Shown piece by piece: positions 33,598-51,078 of a DNA stretch of 64,000 bases. Below the pieces are notes generated by a model. The model saw nothing but the letters and a program-made list of their open reading frames with translations, was not told where the DNA came from and did not search any database. Each line of letters opens with the position of its first letter. The first letter of the stretch is position 1. The DNA comes from a bacterium. Lineage in GTDB: Bacteria > SM23-31. The stretch is from positions 1,038,065 through 1,102,064 of the forward strand of contig OZ244870.1 of assembly GCA_965221205.1 (NCBI GenBank), in the 5' to 3' direction. Position numbers and translations under genes: made by a program.

Positions 33598-36411
33598 TCA
33601 AGCGCCGCCAATGCCCGCGTGGCGTGAAAGAATGCTCTGAATATCACCGGGGGCTCTCGATATATCCCCTGCCCAGCGGCCAAAGCCGCCATGCGCGTTG
33701 ACGGCGGTGATCCATTCGTCGAGAAACCGGCGTTTGGTTCGGTCCTGTTCGCTGTCCTGTCCCTTGGTTTCCAACACGAGTATGTCGCCGGACCTGAACC
33801 GGATGAGGAAGTCGGGACGGTACTTCCGCACCACGCCGCGATGGACGTAGAACACTTCGAAGCCCAGGTGATCGTTTTTCACCCAGGCGGCGACCTCGGG
33901 GGCGTGATCGAGGGCAAAGGCTTCCGACGATTCCCAGGTGCTGTCATAGACGCAGAAATTGATATGGCTGCGCGCCGTGGGCTCGCAGGGCCTGCCGGTG
34001 TACCATGTCCCCATGTCGCCGGTTGAACGGATGGGCCGGTCCCGGTCGAACACCGGCTCCAGACTCTCGGTGTTCTCGAAGCGGATGGCTTCCCAGATAT
34101 GCTGGACCACCTTGGTCATGTTGAGCGTGATGATGAGACGGCGCTTGAGATCGTCGCGGAGGAATAGTGCAGGCGTGATGCTGATTCTGTCCGAACGGAT
34201 GAATTGATCGACCAGCCGTACCAGTTGGGCCAGCAGGAATGCTTTGCCTCCCCGCCAGTTCTTTTGCATTTGGTCGTAAACGTCCCGCGCGGTCTCAAAG
34301 ATAATCCGCTGTGTCCGAAACTCCCGCGCCAGATTCTCCAAGTCTATAGCCTCGATCTTCGTCACGTCCGGTTTGCCGGCGACGATTGGGGCAAGCTCCG
34401 CGATTCTTACGGTCCTGCCAACATCGAGTTCCAGGCTTGCCACCTTGTTCCAATCCAGGGAGAGCTGCGGTCGGTATACGTGGTCGATGCGGATCACGTT
34501 CGGCCAAGAGATTTCGAAAGCCGCTTTGCCCGTTACCGGCTCAATAGCGGTCTTTGGCGTTGGCGGCGGTGGAGGGCCGCTCTCTCCACCTTCGTGGGGC
34601 AGAAAAGTGAAGGGCACGCCGAAAATATTGACGTACTCCGGCTCGAACAAACCGTTGTTCGGGTTCACATCGTAAGATGTGCGGCGCAGGCCGCGTCCGA
34701 CGACCTGTTCACAGAGAAGCTGGCTGGTGAACGCGCGGAGGCCCATGATGTGTGTCACGGTCTTGGCGTCCCATCCCTCGGAAAGCATCCCGACGGAGAT
34801 CACATTCTGGATCAGCTCGCCCGTTTTCCCAGGTTGGCCCACGGTGTTCACCTGCGAGCGCAGCAGCTCGGCTTGCTGTTTTTTGGTTAGCTTGCGTGAG
34901 GGGCCGCCGTTCGCAGCTTCTTCGCTCTCGCCAGCGCCGATCTCCGCGATCGGCTCCTCGGCGGCCTCGGCCGCGTCAAGTACCCTTGAGTCGATATGAA
35001 GGGTTCGCGCCGGGTCGCAAAGCTCGCTGATACGGACTCTGCTGTGGTCGAATGCGTACTTGATCCGGGCTGCGGTCTCGGTGCGATTGGCGACGGTGAT
35101 CATCACTGGCGGGGTTTTGGACCCGTCCTTTCTCCATTGCTTAGATGTCTCGCGCCAGTCGAAGCCGAGAAGGCAGTAGCCATTGACCACCAGGTCCGGC
35201 AGCGGTTCTTCGGGCTTGGCCCGCCGGTTTAAGTCGTCCTTGACCTCGGCATCGTTGTAGATGTGGTAGAGGCGGGATTTGTAGGTCGTGACGTCAGGTA
35301 CCGCATCGTCGCGAATCACGACGCGTGGGGTCTTGACCAAACCGGACTCGATGGCGTCGTTCAGGCCGAAGTCGCTCACGATCCAGCCGAACAGCGCCTC
35401 CTCGGAACTCCGTTTACCCGATGGCGCGAAGGGCGTGGCGGAGAAGTCGCAGCAAGCGAGAATGCCCCGCGCCCTGTCGATCCGATCCAGGCCGCCAACC
35501 CACTTGGTCGCTTCCTCGATTTCATCCCTGGCAACACCTTTGACCTTGGATTCGGCGGGAACGCGCCAGGCGTGATGCGCTTCGTCATTGATGACAAGAA
35601 TGTTCCGGGCGTTCGCCAAGTCGCCCAGAACCTCGCGGACATAGGCTTCGTCGCTCTTGGATCTCCGTTTATCTACGCTGCGTTTTCCGGCAATCCTCTC
35701 ATCGGTCTCCCAATTGAGTGCGTGCCAGTTGCGGACCACGACCTTGCCTTGGCGCAGCTTGTCGAACAGGGACGACGGAACGACGTGGAAAGCTTTGTAG
35801 TAGTTCTCCGCATGAGACGGTTCCAAGACGGCCAGACGGTTCTTGACCGTGAGTCCCGGAGCGATAACCAGCACGTTTCGGGCGAATCGCGCATCCTGGG
35901 AATAGGTGACCTTGTTCAGGATATGCCAGGCGATGACCATGGCCATGACGACGGTCTTGCCCGAGCCGGTCGCCATCTTTGCGCACAACCGCCCAATCGG
36001 CCCGCCATCGGAAGGGATGTCAACGCCAATTTTCTCGGCCGCTGACGCTTCGGCAAGCCAGATCAGCGTCTCGACAGCCTCCAGTTGGCAGAAGAAAAAT
36101 CGACGGTTATCGAACTCCTCCGGGTTCGTCCAGTGCTCCAACAGCCGCTTCGTAATTCCCGTGACACCCGGATACCCGGCTCCACGCCACGCCCGTACAC
36201 GCGGACGAATCCGGTTGACCAGGGGAATCTCGACGAAATGGCCCGGATCATCGAACGATCGGGAGCCCTCCGAGGCAATGACGTATCCGGCCGGCCGGCG
36301 GCCTTGCGCACGGTCGAAAAGGCGCGTCTGGCGGTCGTAGCTCCAGTGTTGGCCCGGCTCCTCGTAGGGAGAGTTGATAATCAGGCGATCGATGGTTGTT
36401 TGCGCCATCAT
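33598..36411 (-). CDS. res: Type III restriction enzyme Res subunit
   Basis: Walker A ATGSGKTVV, DEAH box VINDEAHH, helicase C-terminal motifs; start ATG 36411 (MMAQTTIDRLIINSPYEEP) overlaps the hepT stop (ATGA); inside the GC-rich island. Confidence 0.85.
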   Translation of the reverse strand: MMAQTTIDRLIINSPYEEPGQHWSYDRQTRLFDRAQGRRPAGYVIASEGSRSFDDPGHFVEIPLVNRIRPRVRAWRGAGYPGVTGITKRLLEHWTNPEEFDNRRFFFCQLEAVETLIWLAEASAAEKIGVDIPSDGGPIGRLCAKMATGSGKTVVMAMVIAWHILNKVTYSQDARFARNVLVIAPGLTVKNRLAVLEPSHAENYYKAFHVVPSSLFDKLRQGKVVVRNWHALNWETDERIAGKRSVDKRRSKSDEAYVREVLGDLANARNILVINDEAHHAWRVPAESKVKGVARDEIEEATKWVGGLDRIDRARGILACCDFSATPFAPSGKRSSEEALFGWIVSDFGLNDAIESGLVKTPRVVIRDDAVPDVTTYKSRLYHIYNDAEVKDDLNRRAKPEEPLPDLVVNGYCLLGFDWRETSKQWRKDGSKTPPVMITVANRTETAARIKYAFDHSRVRISELCDPARTLHIDSRVLDAAEAAEEPIAEIGAGESEEAANGGPSRKLTKKQQAELLRSQVNTVGQPGKTGELIQNVISVGMLSEGWDAKTVTHIMGLRAFTSQLLCEQVVGRGLRRTSYDVNPNNGLFEPEYVNIFGVPFTFLPHEGGESGPPPPPTPKTAIEPVTGKAAFEISWPNVIRIDHVYRPQLSLDWNKVASLELDVGRTVRIAELAPIVAGKPDVTKIEAIDLENLAREFRTQRIIFETARDVYDQMQKNWRGGKAFLLAQLVRLVDQFIRSDRISITPALFLRDDLKRRLIITLNMTKVVQHIWEAIRFENTESLEPVFDRDRPIRSTGDMGTWYTGRPCEPTARSHINFCVYDSTWESSEAFALDHAPEVAAWVKNDHLGFEVFYVHRGVVRKYRPDFLIRFRSGDILVLETKGQDSEQDRTKRRFLDEWITAVNAHGGFGRWAGDISRAPGDIQSILSRHAGIGGA

Positions 36412-36602
36412 GCAGTCTCCGGTAGCACCAGCGGTTCGATGAGGTTGATGAGACGGGGAATGTCCTGTTGTGCGGTCTTCCACACATGCTTCAGGTCAAC
36501 CTCGAAATAGGCGTGTACGAGGCGATGTCGCATCCCAGCGAACTCCACCGCACCCCGCGCTGCCAGCAGCATGTCGAGCAGACAGGCATCGTCATGCCGC
36601 AT
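36408..36602 (-). CDS. HEPN-domain toxin (HepT/DUF86-like), short form
   Basis: R-x4-H-x-Y motif in GMRHRLVHAYFEVDLKHVW; start overlaps the mntA stop. Confidence 0.55.
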   Translation of the reverse strand: MRHDDACLLDMLLAARGAVEFAGMRHRLVHAYFEVDLKHVWKTAQQDIPRLINLIEPLVLPETA

Positions 36603-36903
36603 AGATCGTCTCGGCGGATTGGAGGATTGCGGCACGGCGAATGTAGTTTCGGCTCTGTTCGACCGCCGTGCGTTCGAACAGGTCTACCTCCCGGCCGAGT
36701 ATCCGAGCCAGATCGGCCTGCATTCGCGCCATGTCCAGAAGTGTGTGGCGCGCTTGTTGCTCGAAACGCACCAGTACATCCACATCGCTTTCCGGTCCGA
36801 AGTCGTCCCGTAGCACGGAACCGAACAGCGACAGTTCGACGATCCGCCAGCGTTTACAAAAGTCGGCTATCTCGTCTCGCGGTGTGTCGATATGTACACT
36901 CAT
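36592..36903 (-). CDS. Nucleotidyltransferase (MntA-type antitoxin)
   Basis: GS-x9-DxD motif LFGSVLRDDFGPESDVDVLV; start taken at internal ATG 36903 immediately after the upstream stop at 36906-36908. Confidence 0.7.
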   Translation of the reverse strand: MSVHIDTPRDEIADFCKRWRIVELSLFGSVLRDDFGPESDVDVLVRFEQQARHTLLDMARMQADLARILGREVDLFERTAVEQSRNYIRRAAILQSAETIYAA

Positions 36904-36905
36904 GC

Positions 36906-37748
36906 CTATAACACTTGGTTCGCGTCGACATTGAAGCCGACACTCTTTAGCTCCCGAATAAGTCTTAGCTTCCAACCATCCGAGCCGTCCAACGGAATGT
37001 AAATGACTCCATCATAGTCCGAGGGCGTCTCTACGTTACCTTTCACCAAAGTGCAGACTCGCTCTCGACCGAGTTTGCCAATGAAGTACCCGAATTCGAA
37101 AATCACGTTCTGTCTCGCCCGTGGCTTTTGATTCTTCTTGTCGTCCGCAAGCGCGCCCACGTCGTCCGGGGTCAGCAGGACCACCGCGAACCCAACTTGC
37201 GCATGTTCCTCAAACTTCTCGATGATCGTGCGGCCCTTATTCGGTTGTTCGTGCAGGATTACCGGTTCAAGATCCAGCCTTTCTAGGAATCTTGCAACCG
37301 TTCTCCGAGCAGATTCGTCGTGGCCATGGATGACGAAAACTCTGTTACTGCTCGATCGTTTGTCGATTCGTTCCGAGTCAAGCGCTGAAATGTCACTTTG
37401 ATCTATGGGTTGCGTTGGCGTCTGGTTTTCATCAGACCAATACTCCTCGATCTCCTCGATCATGGATTCGAGTACTGCGGCCGCTGATTCCAAGCCTTTC
37501 ACATAAACTTCCTGGCGTTCTGACTCAGGCGGCTCAAAGTAGGCAGGGGCAGGAGAAAAACGGATATTTTTGAAGTCTCCAATGTGGGCCGACTTGCTCT
37601 CAAACGTGTTGGTGATAGCGACCTCTGTGTTTCTTTGCCACTTATCAAACTCAGGTGAGCGGTACTTTAGGTTTTTTAATTTGGGTATTGCATCCAATGC
37701 TCTCCGCAGGCGCTCCAGACCCTTGGCTTTTATTGGTCGCGCCATCAC
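36906..37748 (-). CDS. TIR-like nucleotide-binding protein (COG4271/PF10137-like C-terminal domain) with unknown N-terminal domain
   Basis: C-terminal block RVFVIHGHD..FAVVLLTPDD..ARQNVIFEFGYFIGKLGRERV..PSDYDGVIY matches the TIR-like family pattern recalled from memory; start overlaps the Mod stop. Confidence 0.6.
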   Translation of the reverse strand: MMARPIKAKGLERLRRALDAIPKLKNLKYRSPEFDKWQRNTEVAITNTFESKSAHIGDFKNIRFSPAPAYFEPPESERQEVYVKGLESAAAVLESMIEEIEEYWSDENQTPTQPIDQSDISALDSERIDKRSSSNRVFVIHGHDESARRTVARFLERLDLEPVILHEQPNKGRTIIEKFEEHAQVGFAVVLLTPDDVGALADDKKNQKPRARQNVIFEFGYFIGKLGRERVCTLVKGNVETPSDYDGVIYIPLDGSDGWKLRLIRELKSVGFNVDANQVL

Positions 37749-40133
37749 TCCACCTCCACCACTTTTAAGCTCTCGATGCCGCGGTCGTCGACGATCTTGA
37801 CGGTGATGCGCCGGTGTCCGCCGACTTCGAAGGGGAGGGAGGACGTCCCGCGATAGGCCTCAACCAGGTCTGTGTCGATCTCGGCCTTGAGATTCCGGGC
37901 GAGTTTTGCCCAGCCGTCCCTGCTGCCCGCCATGGGAAAAAACACCTGGCGGGGAAACAGGCTGCGCCCGTCATAGTCCGGATCGAGCATCCACATAGCG
38001 ATCTTGTCCGAGCCGCCCGATTCCACGTTGCCGGTCTTGGTGTTGTAATAGTCGAATCCTTGGACCGAGACGCGGAACTTGCCCTGGTCTTCGCCTTCCT
38101 TGATCCGCTCGACTTCCATGTCCGGCTGGCCGATCAGCCAGAAGCTCTCGTTGCTTGTCCGCTTCTTCTTGAGGTCGTCGGTCAGCAAATCGGCGTTCAT
38201 CTGCACTTTTAACAAGGTGGCGCCAGGCCAGCGGGTTTCGTCGATGTCCTTGGGACGCTTCGGGATCGAACTGGAAGGCCGCAAAGACGATAACCTTGGG
38301 TCGTGGGGCAAGACTTTGTGCCTCCTCGATGGCGCGTGCCACCTGCCGCTGCTCCAGCGGTGCATGATCCGGCCCAAACGAGACCACGAGCCGTTCCGGA
38401 TTGCGGGTGGTAGCGGGGTCTTGAAAGCCGTCCGTCCCCGCATCGCCGGGCCGCGTCTCGCCCTCGGCGTGCAGCCATCGGGTTGCGGGCAGCGGTTCCA
38501 GCCGAGCAAATGAGATTCGCTGCCCGTCCTTGCCGCGAATGCCGGTCTTGAACAACTCGTCGCGCCAGTCGCCTTGGCGCACGGTCGGTCCAGTACGCGC
38601 CACGGAGGTGTCTGCCGGCAGTGCCTCGGACTCTTCGATGTCGTCCAGGGGCTTCACCGTTGGCGCGGGAACCGCTTCCACGGTGAACGGTCCGGTGACA
38701 CGGGCTTTGCGCCGGTTGATCTCCGGTTGATCGTAGAGCGTGGTCTCGTTGGGCGGTTCGTCATAGCCCAAAGTCTTCGCCGATACGGTGGCGACGCTGT
38801 GGTAACGAAAACCGGCCCCAACTCCTTCGTCAGGATGGGCCAGTTTGTAGTAGTGATAGTTCGCCGTCATGAGGCGCTGCTTGGCCAAGACTGTCGCGAC
38901 GCGCGATGTGTCGCAGGTGATCCATCTTCTGCCCCATTGCTCGGCGACGTGGGCAGTGGTACCGCTGCCGCAGGTTGGGTCAAAGACCAAATCGCCCGGA
39001 TCGGTGGTCATCAGGATGCAGCGCTGAATCGCCTTGTTAGCGGTCTGGACCACATAGTGCTTGGCACTGGGCGACATTGGTGCTGCCCAGATGTTGTTGA
39101 TTGGTCTCCCCGGAACCTCATCTTCATACCGTTTCCACATCAGTGACGTCTGGTTCCCCAGGGCTTCCAACCGACCTAGTTCGGCGAGTCGGTCTATTCC
39201 CTCTTTGGAAATGCGCCATTGGCTGTCCCTGCTACAACGAAAGACGCGACCGTCATATTCATAGGGTTCGGAGCGCGCAACCGTGGAAACACCCTGCGAT
39301 TCAAGGGGCATACGGCGATAAATGCGCCCGCCCTCCGGCAAGTGCTTGTCTGGGTCGAAGCGTTCTTCGGGGGTGGGTTTACGGCACTGGCCGTCAGGCA
39401 GTTCGACACTCACATATGAACTGAAAAACTCGATCACCTCGGCCCGCGTGAGCGACTCATACAATTGCCGGTATTTCACAAGCCCTCGGTCTCTGGCATA
39501 CCACAACAGATAATCCGCAACTTGGGGCAAGGTCTTAGCAGGACTGTTGCCGGTGGTCGCGTAGGAAATGGTTGCCATCCGGTTCTCTGCGCCGAAGATG
39601 TCGTCCATGACTAGGCCGACGCGGTGGATATTTTCGTCGCCGATCTGCACGAAGACACTGCCGCTCTCATGCAGCAGCTCGCGCGCCAACAGCAGGCGGT
39701 CGCGCAGATAGGCGAGATACGAATGGATGCCGAGTTCCCAGGTATCGCGGAAGGCGCGGATCGTCTCCGGCTCCTGGGTCAGGTCCTCGTCCCTGCCGTC
39801 GGTCACGGTGCGCTGGTTGACGAATGGTTGGAAGTTCGAGCCGTAGCGGATGCCGTAGGGCGGGTCGATGCGCTCATGGACGTGCAGGGATACGGTGGGG
39901 ACTTCGAACGAGGTGTGCTCGTCCTTCCCGGCCCAGACGAGCTGCGGATCCAGGTGCGGATCGTAAGCGTAGGTTGTCTTGCCCGCATCCTTGTCGGTCT
40001 CCGGTGTCACCAATCCGACAGGCGGGTTGTTCACACGCTCCTTGCCAGTGTGCGTGTAGTTTTCAACCTCACGCTTTTTTCTGTTCTTCGGTCCCGCTAT
40101 GTCGTTCCCCTTAACTTCGGTCTCTGTCTCCAA
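37745..40133 (-). pseudogene. mod: Type III DNA methyltransferase Mod, apparent +1 frameshift near 38252
   Basis: ORF 37971-40133 carries DPPY, NIWAAP and FDPTCGSGTT motifs, then turns into Arg-rich nonsense after ..FQFDPEA; ORF 37745-38509 continues in another frame with a Mod-like C-terminus; junction at a GGG run (plus 38252-38254). Confidence 0.7.
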
Positions 40134-40172
40134 GAGAGTGGAGTGATTTCAACCTCACGTAATATATCTGCC

Positions 40173-40490
40173 TCAACTTTTGAGGGCACGGTCAGCATCA
40201 AGGTTTGTTATTTTTTTCATACGTCCACTCTCATCAAAGAATTTTCCAATATCATACGTAAGTGAGTTTTTCATTACCTTCAATACATCATCAGCCTGAA
40301 GTTCAACTCGTTCTTTTCGTTCCTCCGGAGCATTCGAAATGAAAGTTTGAATCAGAGATTTTCTCAGGTTTTCATAATCTATTTCACAAGAAGTTTTTTG
40401 CTATACCGAGAAGGCACGGCCGCTGCAGATGCATTAAGATCAACAAGACACTCTTTCACATTCACACACTGGACAATATACGTAGAATAA
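40173..40490 (-). pseudogene. Phage terminase small subunit (TerS-like) remnant, frameshifted
   Basis: Minus-strand frames read ..LVDLNASAAAVPSRYSKK then TSCEIDYENLRK..NAPEERKERVELQADDVLKVM..; frame switch at a T6 run (plus 40394-40399). Confidence 0.4.
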
Positions 40491-40595
40491 TTAAGTAAAT
40501 GAGGAAAATCAAGTAATTTATATTAATGTTGTATAGAGGGTTTATAATATTACTTAATTAAGTCAATGGTACTTAATTATTTGTTTAGATAAGTT

Positions 40596-42017
40596 CTAAA
40601 TCTTTCCACATATTTTCCACATATATTTATTATCTGTTTTGGGTAATGGTTTTTCATATCCTCTTTCCTGCAGCAATTTGTTGAGTGTTCTTTTTGTCAC
40701 TGAGTACTCATTGTTTTCATCACACCAATGTTTGTACTTTTCATAGACCATTTTAACCGGTGTCATTACACATGCAACATTTTTGCAACAGTCACTTAAA
40801 AAACTACCAATAACATCAGAATCTGAACGATATTCTTTTGTTGCATTTTCAACGGATGCTGGAATTATCACCTTCCACATATATAATAATCCCGGAATCC
40901 AGTTATCGCCCAATTCAGGATTCCAGGCAGCTCATTTCTGAATATGTTGAGCAATTCTGATTTAGGTCTTCGATTATTTTTTCGGAATTCCAACGGTAAA
41001 CGGGAGCTTACGCATTCTACGCCAGAAACCCTCAGTCGGTTGCGTGTACCCGTGGTTCATCATTTCCAAACATCCACAATTTATGTACTGGCTTAAATTC
41101 GAAAGTATATCGTTCCAAATGTGCCATTTCTTTGAACTATGGTTGTACCGTATTTGGTCGCCGAAATTGAATGCAAGAAAATCAGCGCTCCAAGTGTCAG
41201 TTGGTGAAAACTTGTCAGAATCATTCGTGGGTTTCAACGGCCGACCATTTTTCTTATCTTCAGGTTCTGGCTTCGGCTTATCGGACGGTTTCCAGAATGG
41301 AGTATCTCTGACGAGTTCGGTCAGCTGGTCTTTGGTATCACCTGCTTTTATCCAATCTGTGATGTCCTGCTTCGGCTGGCAGGTCCGGGAGTCTCAAAAT
41401 TATTATGTCTGCGGCAGATCTATGAAGTTTTAAGGCGATATCTTCGGAACGCAATCGTCCAGGGTCATCGTTATCCGGAATAATAACAACGTTAGCTTTA
41501 TGCAGCCAGGTAGAAAAGGCGGATTCCCAATTTCCGGCGCCACTGGAATTCGCCGCCGCGAACCCGAGAGATTCGAGCGTGTGTACATCCTTCTCGCCTT
41601 CGACTATGAATATAGACCTGCCTTTTTTAACAGCTTCCAATATCTGGGGGAGTCGGTATATAACATGCTTAACACCACGGATATTCCAGATCAACCCTCC
41701 GGGGCCATCAGGTTTTCTCAGTCTGAATTGTTTATCTTTCAGGCGGCACGCCTGGTACAATAAAGCGCCGTTTTCATCGATGTAATCATATGGTTTCTAT
41801 GATATTTGACTTTCTACATGTTCAGACCTATGGACTTAACTATATCTTCCGCAGGACAGCCTGCATGACAGCGCATGAGAACCTTACCTTCTTTGTCGGC
41901 AACGGATAAAGAGGGGGTCTTATCGTCATGGTATGGACAATGTGCTTGATAAGATCCGTTTGATTGTTGTTTTGGGTTTTTTAAGTGAGATAGTACATGG
42001 TCAATACACGCAGTCAT
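40596..42017 (-). pseudogene. Phage/plasmid DNA primase (CHC2 zinc finger + Toprim + C-terminal domain), fragmented
   Basis: Four ORF-track pieces: 41814-42017 (CPYHDDKTPSLSV..CHAGC), 41338-41760 (Toprim IFIVEGEKDV..VVIIPDNDDPG), 40974-41237 and 40596-40913, in frames 2/0/2/2. Confidence 0.6.
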
Positions 42018-42241
42018 TATTCCTAGTCCTTATTTTTATGTAAGTTTCGATCTATTTGTTGAGATACATATCACCTTGCAATAAGCTGCTGTATAAACAT
42101 TCTTGCATAATCATCCCTGTTTTGCTATATTACGGCGTAATTCAGCACCTCAGCATATCGCTTTGTAAAGTGTTGTTTTTATAAGTATATAGTGAATGTT
42201 ATAAGGCTGGATTTTACTACTTCATAACGGAGGATATATTC

Positions 42242-43630
42242 ATGAATCGGTTTATGGTTATATTGATCGTATTGGTGGTGCTGATTGTCGGTGTGGTTGA
42301 AATGGCAGTCTCACAATCCGCACATGAAATTATCCCTGAGCGTGAGCGGGTACAGATTATGGACAGTTGGCTGAAGTGGAAATTTGAACATGTGCTGCCC
42401 GGAATCATGCGGGGTGAAGACATCGATTTGTGGATTGTGCGCAACAACGAAGGGCCGGTGTATCTCTCGCTGCTTTCAACAGATTACGAGGGATTAGTTC
42501 TCAGCACACCTTCATTTCTTATTTTACACAATCAGGGTCCTGGTAAGGGGGTCGAGCGGCTGGAAGGAAACTATGCTGACCTTCCCGAGATTATCGAAGA
42601 GCGGAATCCGTCAGCAATCGGCATCAATATTTCAGATGAAGGCTGGCATCGTGGGGATGGATTTTTTCCCGCCGATGTAGAGGATTTTAAAAATGATCTT
42701 GGACGTAAATATGCTTCAAAAATAGTATCGGCAGCGAATCTCAGTATTGAATGGCTTACGACAAAATCTCCTCAGGAACTCAATACATACCGGTATGCTG
42801 TCCGTGTGGCACGTTCGATCATTGCAAAAGCTTTTTCGAACGATGTCATCATACCCGATGTTACCACCACAGCCGACTTGAACTGGTGGTTGATACAAGC
42901 CTATCTTGATAATGATTTTCTCGTTGTCGATCACCCCTCAGTTTCAATAATCCGGAGTAAAGACGAAATCCCGAAATATTCCGAATCTGCTCACTATTTC
43001 GAAGGTCGGAGCAGAATTGGCAATGGAGTCGATATAATTGTCAGACGGGGGGACCTTGTTGGGTGCGATTCCGGTATAAAATACATGGGGATCAATACCG
43101 ATACCAAGGCGTATGCCTATGTTTTGAAGGATGGTGAAACCGACGCTCCTGAAGGATTAAAACAGGGACTGCGGAATGGCAATAGGGTGCAGGATATTTT
43201 CACAGAAGAATGGAGAGCAGGACAGACCGGAGATGAAATCGCCCGGAGAGCTGCAAAGAAAGCTGTTGGTGAAAATCTGCGTTCGAGAATTTACAGCCAT
43301 CCAATCAGCTACTTTCTCAAACGATACGGCAGGAGTGGTTTATACTTTACCCGCGAACATTTTTTTCCCGGAACGTCATTCAATTCGGAAAGCAGGAATA
43401 CCGGTACTCAGGATCCGCACGATGTTCGAGGCAGGTCGTATTACTCTATAAGAAGCGGCGATTATCCGCTCCATTATAACACAATAACCTCACTCGAGCT
43501 TAGTAATACAACATACATTCCCGAATGGGGCAGGGATATAGAATACAGGCTTGAAGAGAATGTGATGTTTACCGAGCGGGGTGTCGAATATCTCGATGCT
43601 CGCCAGAGTGAACTTCACCTGATACGCTGA
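42242..43630 (+). CDS. M24 family metallopeptidase (Xaa-Pro peptidase/creatinase fold), secreted
   Basis: 462 aa with signal peptide; paralog of 43802-45223. Confidence 0.65.
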   Translation: MNRFMVILIVLVVLIVGVVEMAVSQSAHEIIPERERVQIMDSWLKWKFEHVLPGIMRGEDIDLWIVRNNEGPVYLSLLSTDYEGLVLSTPSFLILHNQGPGKGVERLEGNYADLPEIIEERNPSAIGINISDEGWHRGDGFFPADVEDFKNDLGRKYASKIVSAANLSIEWLTTKSPQELNTYRYAVRVARSIIAKAFSNDVIIPDVTTTADLNWWLIQAYLDNDFLVVDHPSVSIIRSKDEIPKYSESAHYFEGRSRIGNGVDIIVRRGDLVGCDSGIKYMGINTDTKAYAYVLKDGETDAPEGLKQGLRNGNRVQDIFTEEWRAGQTGDEIARRAAKKAVGENLRSRIYSHPISYFLKRYGRSGLYFTREHFFPGTSFNSESRNTGTQDPHDVRGRSYYSIRSGDYPLHYNTITSLELSNTTYIPEWGRDIEYRLEENVMFTERGVEYLDARQSELHLIR

Positions 43631-43801
43631 TAGGTTACTCATATATAGTAAACATATTGATTTCTTTTCATTAATAATTGCGAATAGTCCTGTAGCCTCT
43701 GGACGACGTGGCATCCTCTGATATGAGAATCCTGATTTCTATGTTTTGTTATATATGGTGAGACAATCAGAGATAAATGATTTATTAACGTTAAGGAGTA
43801 C

Positions 43802-45223
43802 GTGATGAAAAAACTTAGAATTATCGGTGTTGCACTGCTTATCGCACAGCTGTTTGCTGGATGCGATACTTCGAAATACGATGAGATTCATTCAACTGAT
43901 AACTTCAGCAACATCCTGCCGCAGCGTGCAGGCATTGAATTGATTGAAGATTGGCTCCAGTGGAAGATCAATAATTTTTTGCCTGAACTCATGGAGCGGG
44001 AAGGTATTGAAATGTGGATTATCACAGAAGATGACACGAGACTCTATCCGTTTTTGATTCCTGCAAACAGCGACGGTTTTGTCGGCCGGAACAGCTTCTA
44101 TATTGCTATTGCTCATAAAGCGGGCCAGGAAGGGGTAGAGCGGCACATGATCGGCAATTCGGACAGTTTCCGCGAGTGGGGGCCGATGTTCCCGGATCAG
44201 GTGTTTACACAGTCAGGCAGCCTCGAAAAACTCTCAGGAATCGTGACCGAATTAAGACCGGCAAAAATTGCGGCAGGTGCTGCATGGAATAACGACCTCG
44301 AAGCAGCGCTCGGTCCCACACTCTCAAACAGACTCGTATCTGCCGACCGGCTAGCAAATCTTTGGATGGAATACCGAACACCGCAGCAACTGGAGGCGTA
44401 CAAAACCGTTATCGATATTACCCATGATCTTATTGCAGGTGGTTTCTCGAGCGACGTTGTGACGCCCGATGTCACAACATCGAATGACATCAACTGGTGG
44501 GTAAAACAGCAGGCTTCCGACCTTGGAATTGATGTAAATTTCGGACCGACAGTCATGGTGTGGAGAAGCTTTGAAGAAAATAAAAAGTACAGTGACCAGG
44601 AAGAAAAATTCCGGATCGATGTTCCGCCGCATAACCTCTACGAAACGGTTATCAGGCGCGGTGATGTGCTTTCATGCGATATCGGAATCCGGTATCTCGG
44701 TCTCTCGACTGATATTCAGCAGGTTGCCTACGTGCTGAAAGAAGGTGAATCGGATGTCCCGGAAGGACTCATGGAAGCGCTACGCCGCGGCAACAGGCTG
44801 CAGGATATCCTCATCGAAGAATTCAAAGAAGGGCTCACCGGGAATGAAATTCTCTTTGCCACGCTTGACCGGGCAAAAGCAGAAGAACTCAGACCCGAAG
44901 TCTACTGTCACACGATGGGATCGTACATCCACCGGTACGGATTTAAAGGGGGTATCATGCCGAAAACCTATGCAGGTTTCGGTCCGTCGGTCGGTTCCGA
45001 GGGACATTTTGACGAAAATGGTAACCAGCTGCCAACACGGAATGGCGAACGGTCGGTCAATACGAACACAATCTATTCAATGGAACTCGACATCACGTAT
45101 GCCGTGCCTGAATGGAACGGTCAGGATATCCGGATCGTTCTTGAAGAAGATGTTGCCTTTACGTCTCAGGACGGGCTCTTTTTTCCCGGAGGCCGCCAGA
45201 CCGAATGGCTTGTGATCCGGTAA
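43802..45223 (+). CDS. M24 family metallopeptidase, lipoprotein-like
   Basis: 473 aa with signal peptide and Cys (LFAGCDT); candidate metal ligands in VLSCDIGIRYLGLSTD, CHTMGSYIH, YSMELD, VLEEDV. Confidence 0.7.
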   Translation: MMKKLRIIGVALLIAQLFAGCDTSKYDEIHSTDNFSNILPQRAGIELIEDWLQWKINNFLPELMEREGIEMWIITEDDTRLYPFLIPANSDGFVGRNSFYIAIAHKAGQEGVERHMIGNSDSFREWGPMFPDQVFTQSGSLEKLSGIVTELRPAKIAAGAAWNNDLEAALGPTLSNRLVSADRLANLWMEYRTPQQLEAYKTVIDITHDLIAGGFSSDVVTPDVTTSNDINWWVKQQASDLGIDVNFGPTVMVWRSFEENKKYSDQEEKFRIDVPPHNLYETVIRRGDVLSCDIGIRYLGLSTDIQQVAYVLKEGESDVPEGLMEALRRGNRLQDILIEEFKEGLTGNEILFATLDRAKAEELRPEVYCHTMGSYIHRYGFKGGIMPKTYAGFGPSVGSEGHFDENGNQLPTRNGERSVNTNTIYSMELDITYAVPEWNGQDIRIVLEEDVAFTSQDGLFFPGGRQTEWLVIR

Positions 45224-45321
45224 TGAATCCCGTCAATCGTAATACCGGTTTTTTGTGTTATTATCCGGTTTTGACCGGTTGTTATCATGGCTCACGTAAT
45301 ATCCAGATAACCAAAAGGAAT

Positions 45322-46893
45322 ATGTTCATGCGCTTTTTTTTGATACACTTTATCCTGTTGATAACAATAACGTCAACACTGTCTCATGCTCAGCCAATGC
45401 ATCAAGAGAATTCTCCATCAGAACAGGAGATCAGAGCATTAGTCCGTGAATACCGGACACAGCATCAGCATGCAATTATAGATGGATATATCGATCTGCT
45501 CTCACTGCCGAACCATTCATATAACAGCGAAGACATTCTTAGAAATGCAGACTTCATTGTTGATTTAATGGAAAAGAGGGATATAAAGACAAAAGTGTAT
45601 GACGGCGGGCATGAGAATCCGAAAAATCCGGTCATTTACGGTGAACGAATTGTGCCGAATGCTGAACGGACACTCCTATTTTATGCCCACTACGATGGGC
45701 AGCGTGTCATTCCTGAACGGTGGACAGATTCAACCCCTTTTTCACCGGTGCTTCGCCCCGGAAAACTTGAAGCGGGTACCAGTGAACCCAAACCGATTCA
45801 ATTTCCCGATAAAATGACACCGTACGAAGATGACTGGCGGATTTATGCCAGATCGGCGAGCGATGACAAGGCTCCTTTTATTGCAATACTGACGGCTATC
45901 GATGCCTTGATAGATGGAGGAATTGAACTGAATAATTCGGTAAAATTCGTTTTTGACGGTGCCGAAGAAGAAGGTTCCACACATCTGATCGATTTTATCG
46001 AATCGAATTCCGAACTGCTTACCTCCGATGTCGTATTCATCTGTGACGGTCCGCTCTATCTGACCGGACAGCCGACACTCTATTTTGGTAATAGGGGAAT
46101 TCAGAGTTTGACCCTTACTGTGTACGGTCCAAATACAAATCTCCACAGCGGCCATTACGGGAACTGGGCCCCAAATCCGGCTTATAAATTGGCGCGGCTC
46201 CTCACAAGTTTCAAAGATAAAAATGGCACTGTTGTTGTAAAAAGCTTCTACGACACGGTCACACCGCTCAACAACCGCGAACTCCGAGCATTGAAAGAGC
46301 TTCCGAAACTCGATGAACAGTTAAGAAATCAGTACGAATTTGCTGTTCCCGAAGGTTTGGGTATAAGTCTCAACGAACTGATAAATCGCCCCTCACTGAA
46401 TGTCAGAATGCTCGAAAGCGGTATGAACCGTACCATTATTCCTCATCAGGCCAGTGCTCTGATGGACATACGTCTTGTCAAAGGGACCGACGGAACCGAT
46501 CTGGTAGCAAAGCTTACAAAACATATTGAAAATCAGGGATATCTTATAGTCGATGACGACCCCGGTCATGAAATCAGAATGACCAACCCAAACATTGCAA
46601 AAATCACTGCCGGCACACCCACACCGGCATCCAGGACGTCGATGGAACTACCCGTTTCCCTCGGTATTATTGCAACCATGACAAAAACATTCGATGGCGA
46701 TGTGGCGCTTATACCGTCACTTGGCGGAACGATTCCGGCCTATATGTTTACCGATCTACTCGATTTACCTGCAATCGGTGTCCCGATTGCAAACCCCGAC
46801 AATAATCAGCACCAGTATGATGAGAACATCCGAATAGGTAATCTCTGGCGTGGAATTGAGATAATGGCTGCTCTGCTTATGGCGAGCTGGTAA
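45322..46893 (+). CDS. M20 family metallopeptidase (dipeptidase-like)
   Basis: Start taken at ATG 45322 (MFMRFFLIHF, signal peptide); ARSASDDKAPF and DGAEEEGS motifs. Confidence 0.7.
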   Translation: MFMRFFLIHFILLITITSTLSHAQPMHQENSPSEQEIRALVREYRTQHQHAIIDGYIDLLSLPNHSYNSEDILRNADFIVDLMEKRDIKTKVYDGGHENPKNPVIYGERIVPNAERTLLFYAHYDGQRVIPERWTDSTPFSPVLRPGKLEAGTSEPKPIQFPDKMTPYEDDWRIYARSASDDKAPFIAILTAIDALIDGGIELNNSVKFVFDGAEEEGSTHLIDFIESNSELLTSDVVFICDGPLYLTGQPTLYFGNRGIQSLTLTVYGPNTNLHSGHYGNWAPNPAYKLARLLTSFKDKNGTVVVKSFYDTVTPLNNRELRALKELPKLDEQLRNQYEFAVPEGLGISLNELINRPSLNVRMLESGMNRTIIPHQASALMDIRLVKGTDGTDLVAKLTKHIENQGYLIVDDDPGHEIRMTNPNIAKITAGTPTPASRTSMELPVSLGIIATMTKTFDGDVALIPSLGGTIPAYMFTDLLDLPAIGVPIANPDNNQHQYDENIRIGNLWRGIEIMAALLMASW

Positions 46894-47118
46894 AAAACAA
46901 CAGGGAATATTGCAAATAACTATTTGATTTTGGTAAAAATATTCGTATTATTACGCTGGAAATTATCTTCCAGTTGCTGTCTTGGTTTGTGGTTTGTGCA
47001 TTCCTCAGTTCACTCAATTATCATGTAACGCGCGAATTTTTCTCACTTCCGGAACGTAAAGTATACTTGGATTGTTTTAGATTCGCGTATCAGGGGAATT
47101 TCGCCCAACGATGGATAA

Positions 47119-47862
47119 ATGACTATGAAAACACAAACACGACGGGAATTTTTAAAAAAGAGTGCCTCCGCCGGAGGCGTTGTAGCGGGTGGGATATTGA
47201 TAGGGACCCTGCCGGCATTATCATGCAATTCAACAACACCAAGTTATAGAAAAGAGGAGCAACACATGGCACATGAATTACCACCTTTACCATATGCATA
47301 TGACGCATTTACCGAAGTAATCGATGAACAGACGATGCGTCTTCACCATGATAAACATCATCAGGGCTATGTAAACGGCCTCAATAAAGCAGAGGAGATG
47401 CTTGCTGCGGCAAGGGATAACGGCGATTTCGGGCTTGTAAAATATTGGGAAAAAGAGCTTGCATTTCACGGTTCGGGACATGCTCTGCACACGATATTCT
47501 GGAATAATCTCTCCCCGAATGGCGGCGGAACACCTTCGGGTGATCTAGGCAGTGCAATCGACAGGGATTTCAGCAGCTTTGACAAATTCAACGCACATTT
47601 TCTGGCTTCGACCAATGGCGTCGAAGGAAGCGGCTGGGGCATTCTTGCCTACCATAAAGCATGGGACAAACTCAACGTGCTTCAAGTCGAAAAACACCAC
47701 GACGTAACTGTCTTCGGCGCGGTTCCGCTTTTAGTGGTCGATGTATGGGAACATGCATATTACCTGAAATACCAGAACAAGCGTCCCGAATATACAAAAA
47801 ACATTTTCAATATCTTCAATTGGGAAGATGTTGCACAGCGGTATGCAGATGCACGCGGCTAA
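47119..47862 (+). CDS. Fe/Mn superoxide dismutase with Tat signal peptide
   Basis: Twin-arginine RREFLKK; LHHDKHHQGYVNGLN and DVWEHAYYL metal-binding motifs. Confidence 0.9.
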   Translation: MTMKTQTRREFLKKSASAGGVVAGGILIGTLPALSCNSTTPSYRKEEQHMAHELPPLPYAYDAFTEVIDEQTMRLHHDKHHQGYVNGLNKAEEMLAAARDNGDFGLVKYWEKELAFHGSGHALHTIFWNNLSPNGGGTPSGDLGSAIDRDFSSFDKFNAHFLASTNGVEGSGWGILAYHKAWDKLNVLQVEKHHDVTVFGAVPLLVVDVWEHAYYLKYQNKRPEYTKNIFNIFNWEDVAQRYADARG

Positions 47863-47907
47863 CCCGTGCATGCAATGGTAAAAAGATAATTTTCGGGATG
47901 AAAATTC

Positions 47908-47942
47908 GAGCCGGTTTCGTATCATACGAGACCGGCTTTTTT
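47908..47942 (+). terminator. Rho-independent terminator downstream of the superoxide dismutase gene
   Basis: 12 bp stem AGCCGGTTTCGT/ACGAGACCGGCT (one mismatch), loop ATCAT, followed by TTTTT. Confidence 0.6.
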
Positions 47943-48108
47943 GTGTCTATTCTTTTTATTTTAACCCAATAAAAATATTTTTAGATAAGACTAAAAATAA
48001 TATTTGCATGTCCTCATTTGTTTTTGTATACTATAACTTATTAGAATTGATCCATAGAAATATTGTTACAATTCAAACTATAAATGTTATGAGAAACAAC
48101 ACAATATT

Positions 48109-49320
48109 ATGCACAAAAATACATTTTCAATCGATAGATATTGCTGTAGCAATCCGGCAAAAACCGTATTCGCTTTTTTTCTTTTCGGACTGTTCGCCTG
48201 TGGTGAACTCCTGACAGAAGCACCCACCGGGGGAGATACTCTCGACGGAACACTTTCCGGAATTTCATCCGAGTTAAATGCATCGTTTGTTCGTGGAGAC
48301 GAAGCATTCGAGAAGGTTTTTACTGTATCATCTGGACTGGGTCCCATTTTCAACCAGCCGAGCTGTGAAACGTGCCATCAGGGTGACGGCAGAGGAACAC
48401 CCGAGACAATTCTGATCCGTTTCAGCAGAGGGGCCGACTTCATAGAAAATGAGGGTGGTGGACAGTTGCAGGATAAAAGTATCACAGCTGTACCGCAAGA
48501 GATTCTTCCATCCGGTGTCGATACATCGCCGAGAATGGCACCTCCGGTGTTCGGAATGGGGCTCATCGAAGGGATTCCGGATGAAACACTCCTTGCACTC
48601 GAAGACCCGGATGATCTCGATGGGAACGGTATTTCAGGCAGAGTGAACAGAGTACCTTCTATCGAAACCGGCACCATGAAAATTGGTCGGTTCGGCAGAA
48701 AAGCAAACACTGCCACGCTTGTTGATCAGGTCTCGCTTGCCTATCATCAGGATATCGGCATTACAACCGACGTAATTCCTGACGAAAATCGACATCCGCA
48801 AGCGGGGAATGTTGCGCTGGGCGATGTTGTACCCGATCCGGAACTTTCGATTTCAACCGTTTTTGATGTGGTGATGTATATCAGATTGCTTGCCCCGCCA
48901 GACAAGGGTTCTGAAACAGCCGAAACGGAACGGGGAAAAACAATTTTCAATGCAATAGAATGTTCTGCATGCCATGTTCCGTCACTGCAGACCGGTCAGA
49001 ATGTGATACCGCAGCTGGACCGTGTTGCTGCCGAACTTTATTCCGATCTGCTGCTCCACGATATGGGATCAGAACTGGCAGACAATAGGCCTGACTATGA
49101 GGCGACGGGTACGGAATGGCGGACACCGCCACTCTGGGGTCTCCGTGTTGCGGGCAATGCACTCGGTGGAAATGTTACGTACCTCCATGATGGCAGAACA
49201 TCCGACTTGTCAGAAGCGATTAGGCTTCACGGTGGAGAAGCAGAAATTGTACGGAATAGATTTAGCGACCTTTCCGAAGAAGACCGGAACGCATTAATTG
49301 CGTTTCTCTTATCATTATAA
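48109..49320 (+). CDS. Di-heme cytochrome c oxidoreductase (DUF1111/thiol oxidoreductase-like)
   Basis: Two CxxCH motifs (CETCH, CSACH); GLGPIFNQPSCETCH block; signal peptide. Confidence 0.6.
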   Translation: MHKNTFSIDRYCCSNPAKTVFAFFLFGLFACGELLTEAPTGGDTLDGTLSGISSELNASFVRGDEAFEKVFTVSSGLGPIFNQPSCETCHQGDGRGTPETILIRFSRGADFIENEGGGQLQDKSITAVPQEILPSGVDTSPRMAPPVFGMGLIEGIPDETLLALEDPDDLDGNGISGRVNRVPSIETGTMKIGRFGRKANTATLVDQVSLAYHQDIGITTDVIPDENRHPQAGNVALGDVVPDPELSISTVFDVVMYIRLLAPPDKGSETAETERGKTIFNAIECSACHVPSLQTGQNVIPQLDRVAAELYSDLLLHDMGSELADNRPDYEATGTEWRTPPLWGLRVAGNALGGNVTYLHDGRTSDLSEAIRLHGGEAEIVRNRFSDLSEEDRNALIAFLLSL

Positions 49321-49331
49321 TGTAAGTAATC

Positions 49332-49784: not shown

Positions 49785-49797
49785 AGGATTCAATTAC

Positions 49798-50973: not shown

Positions 50974-51078
50974 TGAGCCGCTTTAATCGAACAACAGAAA
51001 ATTAGAAATATTTTACTGGAACATTTGAATTAAAATGCATATAATTTTATCAATTGTGGAACACAGGAAGATGATACT

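Follow-up and report, generated by a model that had tools for sequence, protein, structure and literature searches.

The window, the whole 64-kb stretch of DNA that was analysed, carries an island of about 10 kb in which a dead primase gene and a dead terminase small subunit (TerS) gene adjoin a GC-rich block of defence genes. The features are as follows.

32262 to 32272, plus strand: left copy of an exact 11 bp direct repeat, GGAGGATATAT, a candidate att core or target duplication
32273 to 42228, no strand: inserted island between the repeats, absent from a related chromosome (contig L008)
32356 to 33561, no strand: left-end stretch of GC-rich to mixed composition, with no recognisable gene
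33598 to 36411, minus strand: Res, an intact restriction endonuclease of the BPTD_3080 family, 937 aa (NF046055, 1126 bits)
36408 to 36635, minus strand: remnant of a HepT (HEPN) toxin, with about 48 internal residues deleted and only positions 82-118 of the 120-position profile matched
36595 to 36903, minus strand: apparently intact MNT-type nucleotidyltransferase, antitoxin-like (PF01909, E 2e-14; PADLOC PDC-S09)
36906 to 37748, minus strand: apparently intact TIR-domain protein (PF10137, E 2e-42; PADLOC PDC-S35, E 2e-91, positions 5-262 of 264)
37745 to 40133, minus strand: pseudogene of Mod, a type III-like DNA methyltransferase (start codon ATG changed to ATA, 72 residues lost, +1 frameshift)
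40160 to 40199, minus strand: scar of a 2.35 kb deletion, with the first ~15 nt of an OLD-family nuclease gene left
40197 to 40471, minus strand: TerS (Terminase_2) pseudogene, with residues 22-113 of 219 left, no start codon and the C-terminal half gone
40480 to 40595, minus strand: AT-rich spacer between primase and TerS (24-27% GC), with a perfect 12 bp palindrome, ACTTAATTAAGT, and two partial copies of it
40596 to 42017, minus strand: P4-family primase-helicase pseudogene in four frames (zinc finger, Toprim, start of a D5_N-like part, Pox_D5 C-terminus)
40596 to 40993, minus strand: Pox_D5 C-terminus of the primase (PF03288 in the ORF at 40596-40913, E 1.5e-10)
41102 to 41106, minus strand: breakpoint of the large primase deletion, where ~745-755 nt are gone, comprising most of D5_N and the SF3 helicase (DUF5906) core
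41106 to 41237, minus strand: remnant of the start of the D5_N-like part
~41338 to 41795, minus strand: Toprim part, weakly matched (best match in the ORF at 41338-41760 to PF13155 Toprim_2, E 6e-4)
41814 to 42017, minus strand: primase zinc finger (Pfam CHC2 PF01807, E 5e-7, above cutoff)
42229 to 42239, plus strand: right copy of GGAGGATATAT, exact over 11 bp, which also forms the Shine-Dalgarno sequence and spacer of an M24-like peptidase gene

The first-pass annotation had described a TerS-like gene and a CHC2/Toprim primase, both broken, at 40173-42017 on the minus strand. Both identities were borne out, as the matches to PF01807, PF03288, PF03592 and the PHROG families are far beyond chance, and alignment to intact homologues of 758 aa (P0001, primase) and 219 aa (P0245, TerS) exposed the deletions and frameshifts. 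When the four primase frames are stitched together (485 aa), the product matches PHROG 6088 'DNA primase' at 5.8e-64, and its matches to the C-terminal primase PHROGs are confined to positions ~670-810 of the profiles. The Toprim_2 match falls just below its threshold (20.6 bits against a cutoff of 22.1). Against TIGR01613 the stitched protein scores 77.8 bits, below the cutoff of 108.7 and covering positions 188-302 of 304, compared to 275.5 bits for P0001, its nearest intact homologue. Judged by these matches, the gene is a P4-family (TIGR01613) member by descent that would no longer be functional. The span lost in the large deletion corresponds to 10955-11700 of L002 and 11018-11774 of L001, two related loci described below, and has no counterpart in the window. 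Beside it there are at least 7 small indels, and most primase indels lie outside homopolymers; nucleotide alignment to the relatives placed a 35-nt deletion at ~41812-41816, and there are +1 insertions at 41791, 41378, 41035 and 40973, while one base is missing at 40869 (-1) and 11 nt are duplicated at 40624. Identity to phage primases in a phage collection is ~30%, and primase relatives were found at 80 IMG/VR loci at 27-51% identity. A home-made TerS HMM detected a Terminase_2 gene at four of these 80 loci, each time 6-7.5 kb from a partial Toprim match, and none of the four adjoins a full-length primase relative.

The surviving part of TerS lies in two frames (40471-40394 and 40400-40197), with a frameshift at ~40397 where a run of A7 has become A6, and its start codon was removed by a 149-nt deletion. 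The stitched product matches PF03592 Terminase_2 (E 4.3e-12, 47.3 bits against a cutoff of 26.1) over positions 10-99 of 141, so that the C-terminal third of the profile is missing, and also matches PHROG 51 'terminase small subunit'. Annotated phage TerS genes match it as well, for instance that of Aaphi23 (46% identity, E 2e-13). The intact homologue P0245, which is 82% identical to the window TerS, was found by exhaustive HMMER search; a word-indexed homologue search with the stitched TerS returned no match. Scans of IMG/VR and JGI metagenomes with TerS (stitched, and P0245) and with the primase half of L091 likewise recovered no close relatives. The gene breaks off at residue 113, and a sister strain (contig L004) has this breakpoint too. 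The segment at 40160-40199 was considered as further TerS residues and was ruled out by comparison with L004, in which it is the start of the OLD nuclease gene deleted here. The spacer between primase and TerS is nearly base-for-base identical with that of the related contigs L091 and L093, and with its ACTTAATTAAGT palindrome it is a candidate cis site, which may be an origin, operator or pac.

​Related contigs appear from their names to stem from long-read metagenome assemblies, some at 5-6x coverage, and two of the frameshifts fall within short homopolymer runs (TerS, A7 to A6; Mod, CC to CCC). Additionally, the Logan assembly of run ERR13605531 breaks at 32759 and 39841, the GC-rich block being assembled apart. 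These observations would fit a chimeric metagenome assembly with long-read indel errors, in which the genes are really intact. However, two independent Logan contigs from that run are 100% identical to 22793-32759 (L092) and 39841-51784 (L003) of the window, and span both GC junctions (L092 to 32759, L003 from 39841). The TerS breakpoint and the junction downstream of it are identical in L004, the lesions that matter most are not single-base errors but deletions of 745, 149, 216, 35 and ~2350 nt, and the adjoining host genes are long and intact. Since the independent contigs are identical and L004 has the same junctions, the lesions are real, and neither they nor the junctions are assembly artefacts; the chance that the genes are intact after all is very slight. 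The single-base homopolymer frameshifts in TerS and Mod could be long-read errors, whereas the large deletions cannot be.

The limits of the island are defined by comparison with L008 (chromosome OZ252239.1), which retains an empty site. By blastn, L008 9808-9999 aligns with 32086-32273 of the window and L008 9988-13018 with 42229-45268, at ~90% nucleotide identity in the flanks, such that window position 32273 is joined directly to 42229. The intervening island (32273-42239, about 9.96-9.97 kb) is without counterpart in L008. Exact copies of GGAGGATATAT occur twice in the 64-kb window, both at the island borders, and once in L008, where the single copy has the same position relative to the ATG of the M24-like gene as the right copy has in the window (ATG at 42242, downstream of the repeat). 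The segment 32086-32273, which ends in the left repeat, lies in L008 directly upstream of the M24-like gene. A default repeat search (minimum 14 nt) passed over the 11-bp repeat, which was revealed by the empty-site comparison. The empty site and the flanking direct repeat therefore identify the island as an inserted element, as had been proposed for the phage fragments, and related primase elements with an integrase and variable defence cargo are in agreement with this. The point of entry would lie between the ribosome-binding site of the M24-like peptidase gene and its start codon, with the 11-bp core GGAGGATATAT duplicated in the process. The repeat could instead be the trace of a microhomology-mediated deletion in the L008 lineage, and not of integration. 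A tRNA-associated att site was also considered and rejected, as the sole tRNA in the window, tRNA-Gln at 21895-21969, is far from the island; an Rfam scan of the whole window gave no family at gathering score. At the left end, the stretch at 32356-33561 contains a hydrophobic 73-aa ORF (32386-32607, minus strand), is common to L004 only, and gave no Pfam match in any frame, no PADLOC match, and no plasmid match at the DNA level.

Apart from the two pseudogenes, no phage genes were recognised, consistent with the first-pass annotation. The island ORFs belong to defence families or have no match (Pfam and PADLOC, with limited sensitivity for very degraded fragments), and none belongs to a structural family; tail, holin, portal and other structural genes are absent, as they are from phage-inducible chromosomal islands (PICIs). 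With one query each, taken from L094, tblastn found no large terminase or portal in the window, L004, L091, L093, L001 or L002. Of the two marks of integration looked for around the remnant, a repeat was found (32262-32272/42229-42239, the att core candidate) and an integrase was not: the L001 and L002 integrases had no tblastn match in the window, and no integrase family was detected in any island ORF or frame fragment. Similarly, the HTH_17 protein of L001 had no tblastn match in the ~210 nt between the primase start and the right-hand repeat, and neither an AlpA-type regulator nor a capsid-morphogenesis gene was detected in the window. The earlier suggestion that mobility functions have eroded thus holds, since primase and TerS are dead and no integrase is left.

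The defence block, with the gene content Mod-TIR-MNT-HepT-Res, differs sharply in composition from its surroundings, at 58% GC compared to 39% in the remnant and 44% in the host (the rest of the window). The same operon is found among ordinary chromosomal genes, without mobile genes, in L005 and L006, which have a GC content of 59-61%. Mod has lost 72 residues in frame (216 nt) at 39861/39869, directly ahead of its DPPY motif, and carries one additional C at ~38255 (CC to CCC); its match to the PADLOC MTase_III profile begins at position 192, compared to 76 for the intact Mod of L005. Phase variation of mod was ruled out, as the frameshift is in a 2-to-3 C run and not in a repeat tract. A difference of 147 residues from L005 near the Mod C-terminus was rejected as a lesion and taken as a variant, being shared with L004, with a short linker instead. 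The TIR protein is of the CAP12/Pycsar type, PDC-S35 being a PADLOC candidate system. Adjacent to it, the MNT protein is 74% identical to that of L005 over 103/103 residues, and HepT can be aligned to L005 HepT at residues 70-114 only, with the same deletion in L004; the intact MNT therefore lies beside a truncated HepT, and not beside the full-length toxin of a HEPN/MNT (HepT-MntA) pair. Res matches NF046055 at equivalog level (1126 bits against a cutoff of 800; positions 2-969 of 970), is 98% identical to Res of L004, and has homologues at 78-89% identity in several phyla. The OLD-family nuclease, of which ~15 nt are left here, is intact in L004 (684 aa; AAA_15/AAA_21 and an OLD-like TOPRIM). 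Res, the TIR protein and one MNT are the only genes of the block that look intact.

These features bear on how the block came to lie beside the remnant. It had been suggested that the defence genes were the original cargo of the element and persisted while its mobility genes decayed. The foreign composition and the cut of TerS at residue 113, which is also seen in L004, argue against the first part, and the block appears to have been acquired later, in the accessory position of the element. Simple persistence is contradicted by the broken Mod and HepT and by the reduction of the OLD gene to ~15 nt. Separate deletions in the two sister loci, affecting OLD, 216 nt of Mod and 149 nt of TerS in the window, and MNT in L004, indicate that decay is ongoing. 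Type III Res enzymes depend on Mod for target recognition. As the Mod beside Res is broken, the restriction system is probably silent.

Additional evidence on the nature of the element comes from related loci. L001 is a compact element of ~13 kb that encodes an integrase, a 207-aa protein, an HTH_17 protein and the intact 758-aa primase, followed by SRAP, DUF7380 and a type I hsdRSM system, and it lacks TerS. In L093/L091 a primase, which in L093 is itself split, is followed by an intact 219-aa TerS, IS3, and Cas2/Cas1/Cas9; the IS starts within 111 nt of the intact TerS in L093, and terL is absent there. L002 carries the same primase, its C-terminal half being 99.4% identical, followed by other cargo that includes an OLD-like ATPase and a type I R-M system, with no TerS downstream. 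An integrase neighbours the L093 and L002 loci across a tRNA-Lys gene and probably belongs to a different element, and it was not counted as evidence of an integrase in this family; in L002 it faces the tRNA 3' end from the opposite side, and the tRNA-Lys was rejected as the att site of the primase element, there being no tRNA-derived repeat downstream. The region downstream of TerS is interrupted by IS3 in L093/L091 and by the GC-rich block in the window. None of the relatives compared has integrase, regulator, primase and TerS together. More distant TerS homologues, in L094, lie in TerS-TerL-portal packaging modules.

Taken together, the backbone is most likely the remnant of a PICI-like phage satellite. 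This is suggested by the relatives with integrase, HTH_17 and primase, or with primase and TerS, which show no large terminase or portal. The first-pass description as a phage remnant was thus correct insofar as the genes are phage-related, and we infer that a phage satellite describes them better than a prophage. It would be the wreck of a small integrative element composed of a P4-family primase-helicase, an AT-rich palindromic spacer and a Terminase_2 TerS, with accessory genes downstream of terS; in such a satellite, TerS would divert the packaging motor of a helper phage onto satellite DNA. In this lineage, a high-GC block may have come in from an unrelated donor and overwritten the accessory position, which would have removed the 3' half of terS and introduced the OLD-family nuclease and BPTD_3080-type mod/res, with the TIR gene and MNT/HepT nested between mod and res. 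The element would now be immobile, with no integrase or regulator, a primase without its helicase core, and a TerS without its start and C-terminal half. Deletional decay appears since to have reached the defence genes, breaking Mod and HepT and eliminating the OLD gene while Res, TIR and one MNT stayed intact. This whole account, of a ~10-kb island with a dead satellite backbone and a later foreign defence block that is now decaying too, is considered reasonably probable. One point against a satellite is that, if an integrase was present at the right end, it would have been removed very cleanly, with ~210 nt left.

A full temperate phage could also have left such a remnant, if all but part of the primase and TerS were deleted and the defence block replaced the late genes. 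Temperate siphoviruses often encode terS after their early and replication genes. The TerS of the window has matches among annotated phage terminases, the primase is ~30% identical to phage primases, and the nearest non-identical TerS homologues are in the TerS-TerL-portal modules of L094. Furthermore, the sequence downstream of TerS is lost in all relatives, and a large terminase could once have followed it. However, three independent contexts (window/L004, L093/L091 and L001) are without any fragment of a structural or lysis gene, and in L093 the intact TerS is followed by an IS, not by terL. The compact integrase-HTH_17-primase-cargo organisation of L001 and the mere ~10 kb between the repeats here also fit poorly with a prophage, which is regarded as an unlikely alternative. 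A non-phage integrative element, mobilisable or plasmid-derived, in which TerS is incidental or variable cargo, appears more doubtful still. P4-family primases occur in phages as well as in plasmids and integrative elements, which is reflected in the name of TIGR01613, 'phage/plasmid primase', and L002 illustrates that the linkage of primase and TerS is not invariable. Yet the almost base-for-base conservation of the spacer between window/L004 and L091/L093 suggests a functional unit, and no relaxase, coupling protein or partition gene was found in the related loci (L001, L002, L093/L091). To our knowledge, Terminase_2 proteins have no function other than packaging, which also counts against a non-phage origin.

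The locus is a base-resolved snapshot of the formation and breakdown of a defence island at the scar of a mobile element. More broadly, it is one more piece of evidence for the spread of defence systems by satellite-like elements in lineages without described satellites. It represents a known kind of element and reveals no new mechanism. For annotation, the primase and TerS are to be labelled pseudogenes, and the type III-like R-M system is to be left out of any count of functional systems. More speculatively, the primase-palindromic spacer-TerS unit may represent an undescribed PICI-like family from an unclassified uncultured lineage outside the Proteobacteria and Firmicutes, with an accessory slot by which entire defence systems (type II CRISPR-Cas9, type I and type III-like R-M, OLD nucleases and AIPR) would pass from strain to strain, and with the ACTTAATTAAGT region as origin or packaging site; we hold this extension only tentatively.

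Among known systems, the defence block is closest to the BPTD_3080 mod/res systems (NF046055, type III-like), an operon widespread among many phyla, on plasmids as well as chromosomes. The full-length Res is paired with an N6_N4 methyltransferase that matches PADLOC MTase_III. In contrast to those systems, Mod is a pseudogene and the nested HepT is truncated in the window, and the TIR and MNT/HepT genes between mod and res are absent from the Agrobacterium and Rhizobium plasmid versions.

With P4-like satellites (Rousset et al. 2022, PMC9122126; Moura de Sousa & Rocha 2021, PMC8628076), the island shares a TIGR01613-type primase-helicase with the architecture of zinc finger, Toprim, D5_N/SF3 helicase and Pox_D5 C-terminus. 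As in P4-like satellites, the cargo varies between close relatives (type I R-M, Cas9, type III-like R-M, OLD nuclease and AIPR). The hijacking genes of P4 (psu, delta, sid and ash/epsilon) were, however, not seen here. We know of no Terminase_2 terS in P4. Satellites are known defence hotspots (PMC9122126; PMC9618062), and marine virion-encapsidated integrative mobile elements (VEIMEs) are environmental satellite-like elements with a primase/helicase, AlpA, terminase small subunit and excisionase, some of which carry R-M or Abi systems (Eppley et al. 2022, PMC9618062). VEIMEs were recovered packaged and complete, whereas the island is a chromosomal wreck that is likened to them by gene content.

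The core of a PICI consists of an integrase, an alpA/stl regulator, a primase-replicase, in some cases capsid morphogenesis genes, and terS, with accessory genes after terS, and Proteobacteria and Firmicutes account for more than 99.9% of the PICIs catalogued (PMC10085698). Unlike these, the island has no integrase, regulator or capsid-morphogenesis gene, and both surviving core genes are pseudogenes, the primase-replicase being without its helicase core and TerS, which is intact directly after the primase in L093/L091, being truncated here. No relative with all core genes was found, and induction by a helper phage is putative. The likeness to PICIs, including SaPIs (SatelliteFinder; de Sousa et al. 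2023, PMC10085698), lies in the gene order, with the primase-replicase followed by TerS and by accessory or defence genes downstream, and in the integrase and HTH_17 (AlpA/Xis-like) genes upstream of the primase in L001. Likewise, the island is free of structural and lysis genes, and its ~10 kb between direct repeats lie within the 7-20 kb of PICIs, which are discrete elements bounded by att repeats at a specific site; the repeat here is the candidate att core.

The limits of the island are set by comparison with an empty site. When the M24-like peptidase gene was used as a query against species-representative genomes, a single relative was recovered, chromosome OZ252239.1 (L008), with approximately 90% nucleotide identity to the flanks. 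In L008, the homologue of window positions 32086-32273 is joined directly to the homologue of position 42229 onward, and the two alignments overlap by 12 nt. The overlap sequence, GGAGGATATAT, has two exact copies in the 64-kb window (at 32262 and 42229) and one in L008, eight bases 5' of the peptidase ATG. Given the empty L008 site and these two copies, the island corresponds to window positions 32273-42239 (9.97 kb), with an exact 11-bp direct repeat on either side of what the first-pass annotation had proposed to be a decayed integrative element. The peptidase gene keeps its Shine-Dalgarno sequence through the right-hand copy. This pattern is what site-specific integration or target duplication classically leaves behind; a microhomology deletion in the L008 lineage would be a less parsimonious account of the same arrangement than insertion. 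The sister-strain contig L004 is without the segment bearing the left repeat. Additionally, a gene for an ECF sigma factor (205 aa) separates the amidohydrolase from the peptidase in L008 (8624-9808); at that place, window 31720-32086 and L004 have an unrelated 366-nt AT-rich stretch.

An assembly artefact was rejected as the source of these features. Two Logan contigs (run ERR13605531) match window 22793-32759 and 39841-51784 at 100% identity; between them they carry both island edges, the lesions of TerS and primase, and the step from low to high GC at ~40160-40200. Moreover, L004, which is 92-99% identical to the window across the low-GC flank and remnant segments, shares its TerS breakpoint and its junction downstream of Res. 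The decisive lesions remove tens to thousands of bases and are not homopolymer slips. The Logan assembly stops at window 32759 and 39841, the GC-rich block being assembled apart from its flanks; these breaks may stem from related mod/res blocks in several genomes of the sample, or from strain differences.

The primase and small-terminase (TerS) fragments recognised at 40173-42017 in the first-pass annotation were correctly identified and placed (PF01807, PF03288, PHROG 6088, PF03592, and PHROG 51), and all relevant reading frames there lie on the minus strand. Four primase ORF pieces follow one another from 42017 to 40596 in different frames, and their lesions were placed by nucleotide alignment to two related primase loci, L001 (75-77% identity) and L002 (82-87%):

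67-aa ORF, minus strand: CHC2 zinc finger (PF01807, E 5e-7)
140-aa piece, minus strand: weak Toprim match (best PF13155, Toprim_2, E 6e-4, just under the Pfam cutoff)
87-aa piece, minus strand: resembles the beginning of the D5_N domain
Two pieces, minus strand: Pox_D5 C-terminus (PF03288, E 1.5e-10)
41812-41816, minus strand: 35-nt deletion, giving rise to the stop after the zinc finger
41791, 41378, 41035, and 40973, minus strand: single-base insertions
41102-41106, minus strand: 745-755-nt deletion
40869, minus strand: single-base deletion
40624, minus strand: 11-nt duplication

The stitched primase (485 aa) matches PHROG 6088 ('DNA primase'; 5.8e-64) over the N-terminal half of the profile (best stretch 169-363 of 772), and its C-terminus aligns with other primase PHROGs at positions ~670-810; therefore, the middle of the protein is missing. 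The best intact homologue, P0001 (758 aa, 56% identity), has Zn_ribbon_DnaG, D5_N, DUF5906 (SF3 helicase), and Pox_D5 domains and clears the curated TIGR01613 cutoff ('phage/plasmid primase, P4 family'), whereas the window primase fails it (77.8 bits versus 108.7) and aligns to profile positions 188-302 only.

TerS, which spans 40471 to 40197 (minus strand), is likewise broken, as had been claimed for both genes. The stitched sequence exceeds the cutoff for PF03592 (Terminase_2, E 4.3e-12) and also matches PHROG 51 and annotated phage terS genes. Relative to an intact homologue found by exhaustive HMMER search (P0245, 219 aa, 82% identity), residues 22-113 alone are retained, split over two frames. 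The ribosome-binding site, start codon, and first 21 codons were lost with 149 nt deleted between two TGTGAA repeats, an A7 to A6 change shifted the frame, and foreign sequence takes the place of TerS after residue 113. In L004, the TerS start codon reads AAG in place of ATG. Primase and TerS are separated by an AT-rich spacer (window 40480-40600, minus strand; 24-27% GC) that is near-identical base for base between window/L004 and the related loci L091/L093. Within it, a 12-bp sequence, ACTTAATTAAGT, is perfectly palindromic and has two partial copies; the spacer may be an origin, operator, or pac site.

The foreign sequence belongs to a block of markedly different composition:

Window without the island: 43.7% GC
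Primase/TerS remnant: 39% GC
Window 32700-40160, GC-rich block: 58% GC
Outer gene: Mod, type III-like, partner of Res
Outer gene: Res, BPTD_3080-family restriction endonuclease (NF046055, 1126 bits, full length)
Between Mod and Res: TIR protein, CAP12/Pycsar-type (PADLOC PDC-S35)
Between Mod and Res: MNT nucleotidyltransferase (PDC-S09)
Between Mod and Res: HepT remnant

Res homologues of 78-89% identity occur in Bryobacterales, Nitrospira, and Rhodospirillales assemblies, among others. In L005, L006, and L007 (77-88% nucleotide identity), the operon lies amid ordinary chromosomal genes of genomes with ~59-61% GC, with no mobile genes near it. In both the window and L004, the block starts exactly at the TerS cut, after '...KKITNL', and with half of its terS gone, a satellite would be unlikely to redirect packaging. 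We therefore infer that the block was probably taken into the accessory position after, or as part of, immobilisation of the element. At the left end of the island, window 32356-33561 (1.2 kb, mostly GC-rich) is shared with L004 only; no gene could be recognised in any of its frames, a plasmid search gave no match, and it contains a conserved hydrophobic ORF of 69-73 aa at 32386-32607. The mod and res genes of BPTD_3080-type pairs seem to enclose a variable slot, and several Agrobacterium, Rhizobium, and Sphingobium plasmids list the two genes alone under the match:

Window 36408-37748, L004, L005 8189-10004, and L007: TIR (PDC-S35) and MNT/HepT
L006 3748-6111: 215-aa protein, DUF5131, and MNT/HepT
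Thermus plasmid (plasmid hit H40): DUF3800 gene

Three further restriction-modification loci are present within the same 64 kb:

Window 56-5360: second ResIII and N6_N4 methylase pair
Window 16541-18105: methylase and BglII-like endonuclease, in a 31% GC islet
Window 55741-56436: EcoO109I-like endonuclease, in another 31% GC islet

The proposal that the cargo persisted while the mobility genes eroded is only half true: the mobility genes did erode, but Mod, HepT, and the OLD nuclease are decaying too. In comparison with L004, L005, and L006, Mod has lost its start codon (ATG to ATA) and is split by a +1 C insertion at ~38255. It has also lost 216 nt in frame between two 'IDP' codon repeats, which fuses HVHERIDP to PYG; among the 72 missing residues are the conserved GDSL segment and the strand preceding DPPY. 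The PADLOC MTase_III profile is matched only from position 192, as against 76 for the intact L005 Mod. HepT is without ~48 internal residues (the same deletion as in L004), and the second MNT gene of L005 is absent. A 2.35-kb deletion left the first ~15 nt of the OLD-family nuclease gene (684 aa in L004); the HNH and AIPR genes of L004 are absent from the window, and MNT was lost in L004 instead. The extra defence genes at the same locus in L004 (1-16398) are thus the OLD-family nuclease, the HNH gene, and an AIPR/AbiU-like gene that is split and accompanied by a fragment of IS3. In the window, Res (aligned over all 937 of its residues), TIR, and one MNT remain intact. In classical type III systems (EcoP1I/EcoP15I), Res needs Mod for DNA recognition and cutting. 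By analogy, loss of Mod would silence restriction without killing the cell, which would explain an intact res beside a dead mod. The whole island is in deletional decay, with different pieces lost by the two sister strains.

The origin of the backbone was considered by comparison with related loci:

L001, ~13 kb in total: integrase (383 aa), 207-aa protein, HTH_17 (AlpA/Xis-like, 64 aa), intact primase, SRAP, DUF7380, type I hsdR/S/M
L093 and L091: primase (split in L093), intact TerS, IS3, 157-aa ORF, Cas2, Cas1, Cas9
L002: primase whose C-terminal half shares 99.4% identity with the L091 one; the genes after it differ and include an OLD-like ATPase and type I R-M
L004: OLD-family nuclease, Mod, TIR, HepT, Res, HNH, split AIPR gene

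At L093 10001-20698 (1.3-Mb contig), as in L091, primase and TerS lie beside a type II CRISPR-Cas locus flanked by IS3 (995-aa Cas9, split Cas1, and Cas2); on the far side of a tRNA-Lys gene are an integrase and a second D5_N/Pox_D5 gene. It is doubtful, if conceivable, that the primase-spacer-TerS module represents an undescribed satellite family in an uncultured lineage, ferrying Cas9 and R-M systems. The core of phage-inducible chromosomal islands (PICIs) comprises an integrase, a regulator (alpA/stl), a primase-replicase, in some cases capsid morphogenesis genes, and terS, with accessory genes 3' of terS and no tail or lysis genes (PMC10085698). The remnant layout is closer to this than to a prophage, and a satellite origin is the reading we favour, with some reserve. 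A prophage remnant is unlikely, and a non-phage integrative element more unlikely still. The window had been said to hold no other phage genes, and indeed, with one large-terminase and one portal query, no such fragments were detected in it or in L001, L002, L004, L091, or L093. Two points nevertheless weaken the satellite call: the relatives recovered include none with the complete core, and what originally came after terS has been lost in every lineage.

The R-M component is a known NCBIfam family, and a new mechanism is not required anywhere; the locus documents neatly and in detail how a defence island forms and decays on the scar of a mobile element, and is useful for annotation. Satellites are known defence hotspots (PMC9122126; PMC9618062). 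Since the integrase and regulator were absent when tested for and the surviving core genes are pseudogenes, the island is not classed as a PICI; rather, it works like, and probably descends from, a PICI or P4-type satellite with a defence hotspot.
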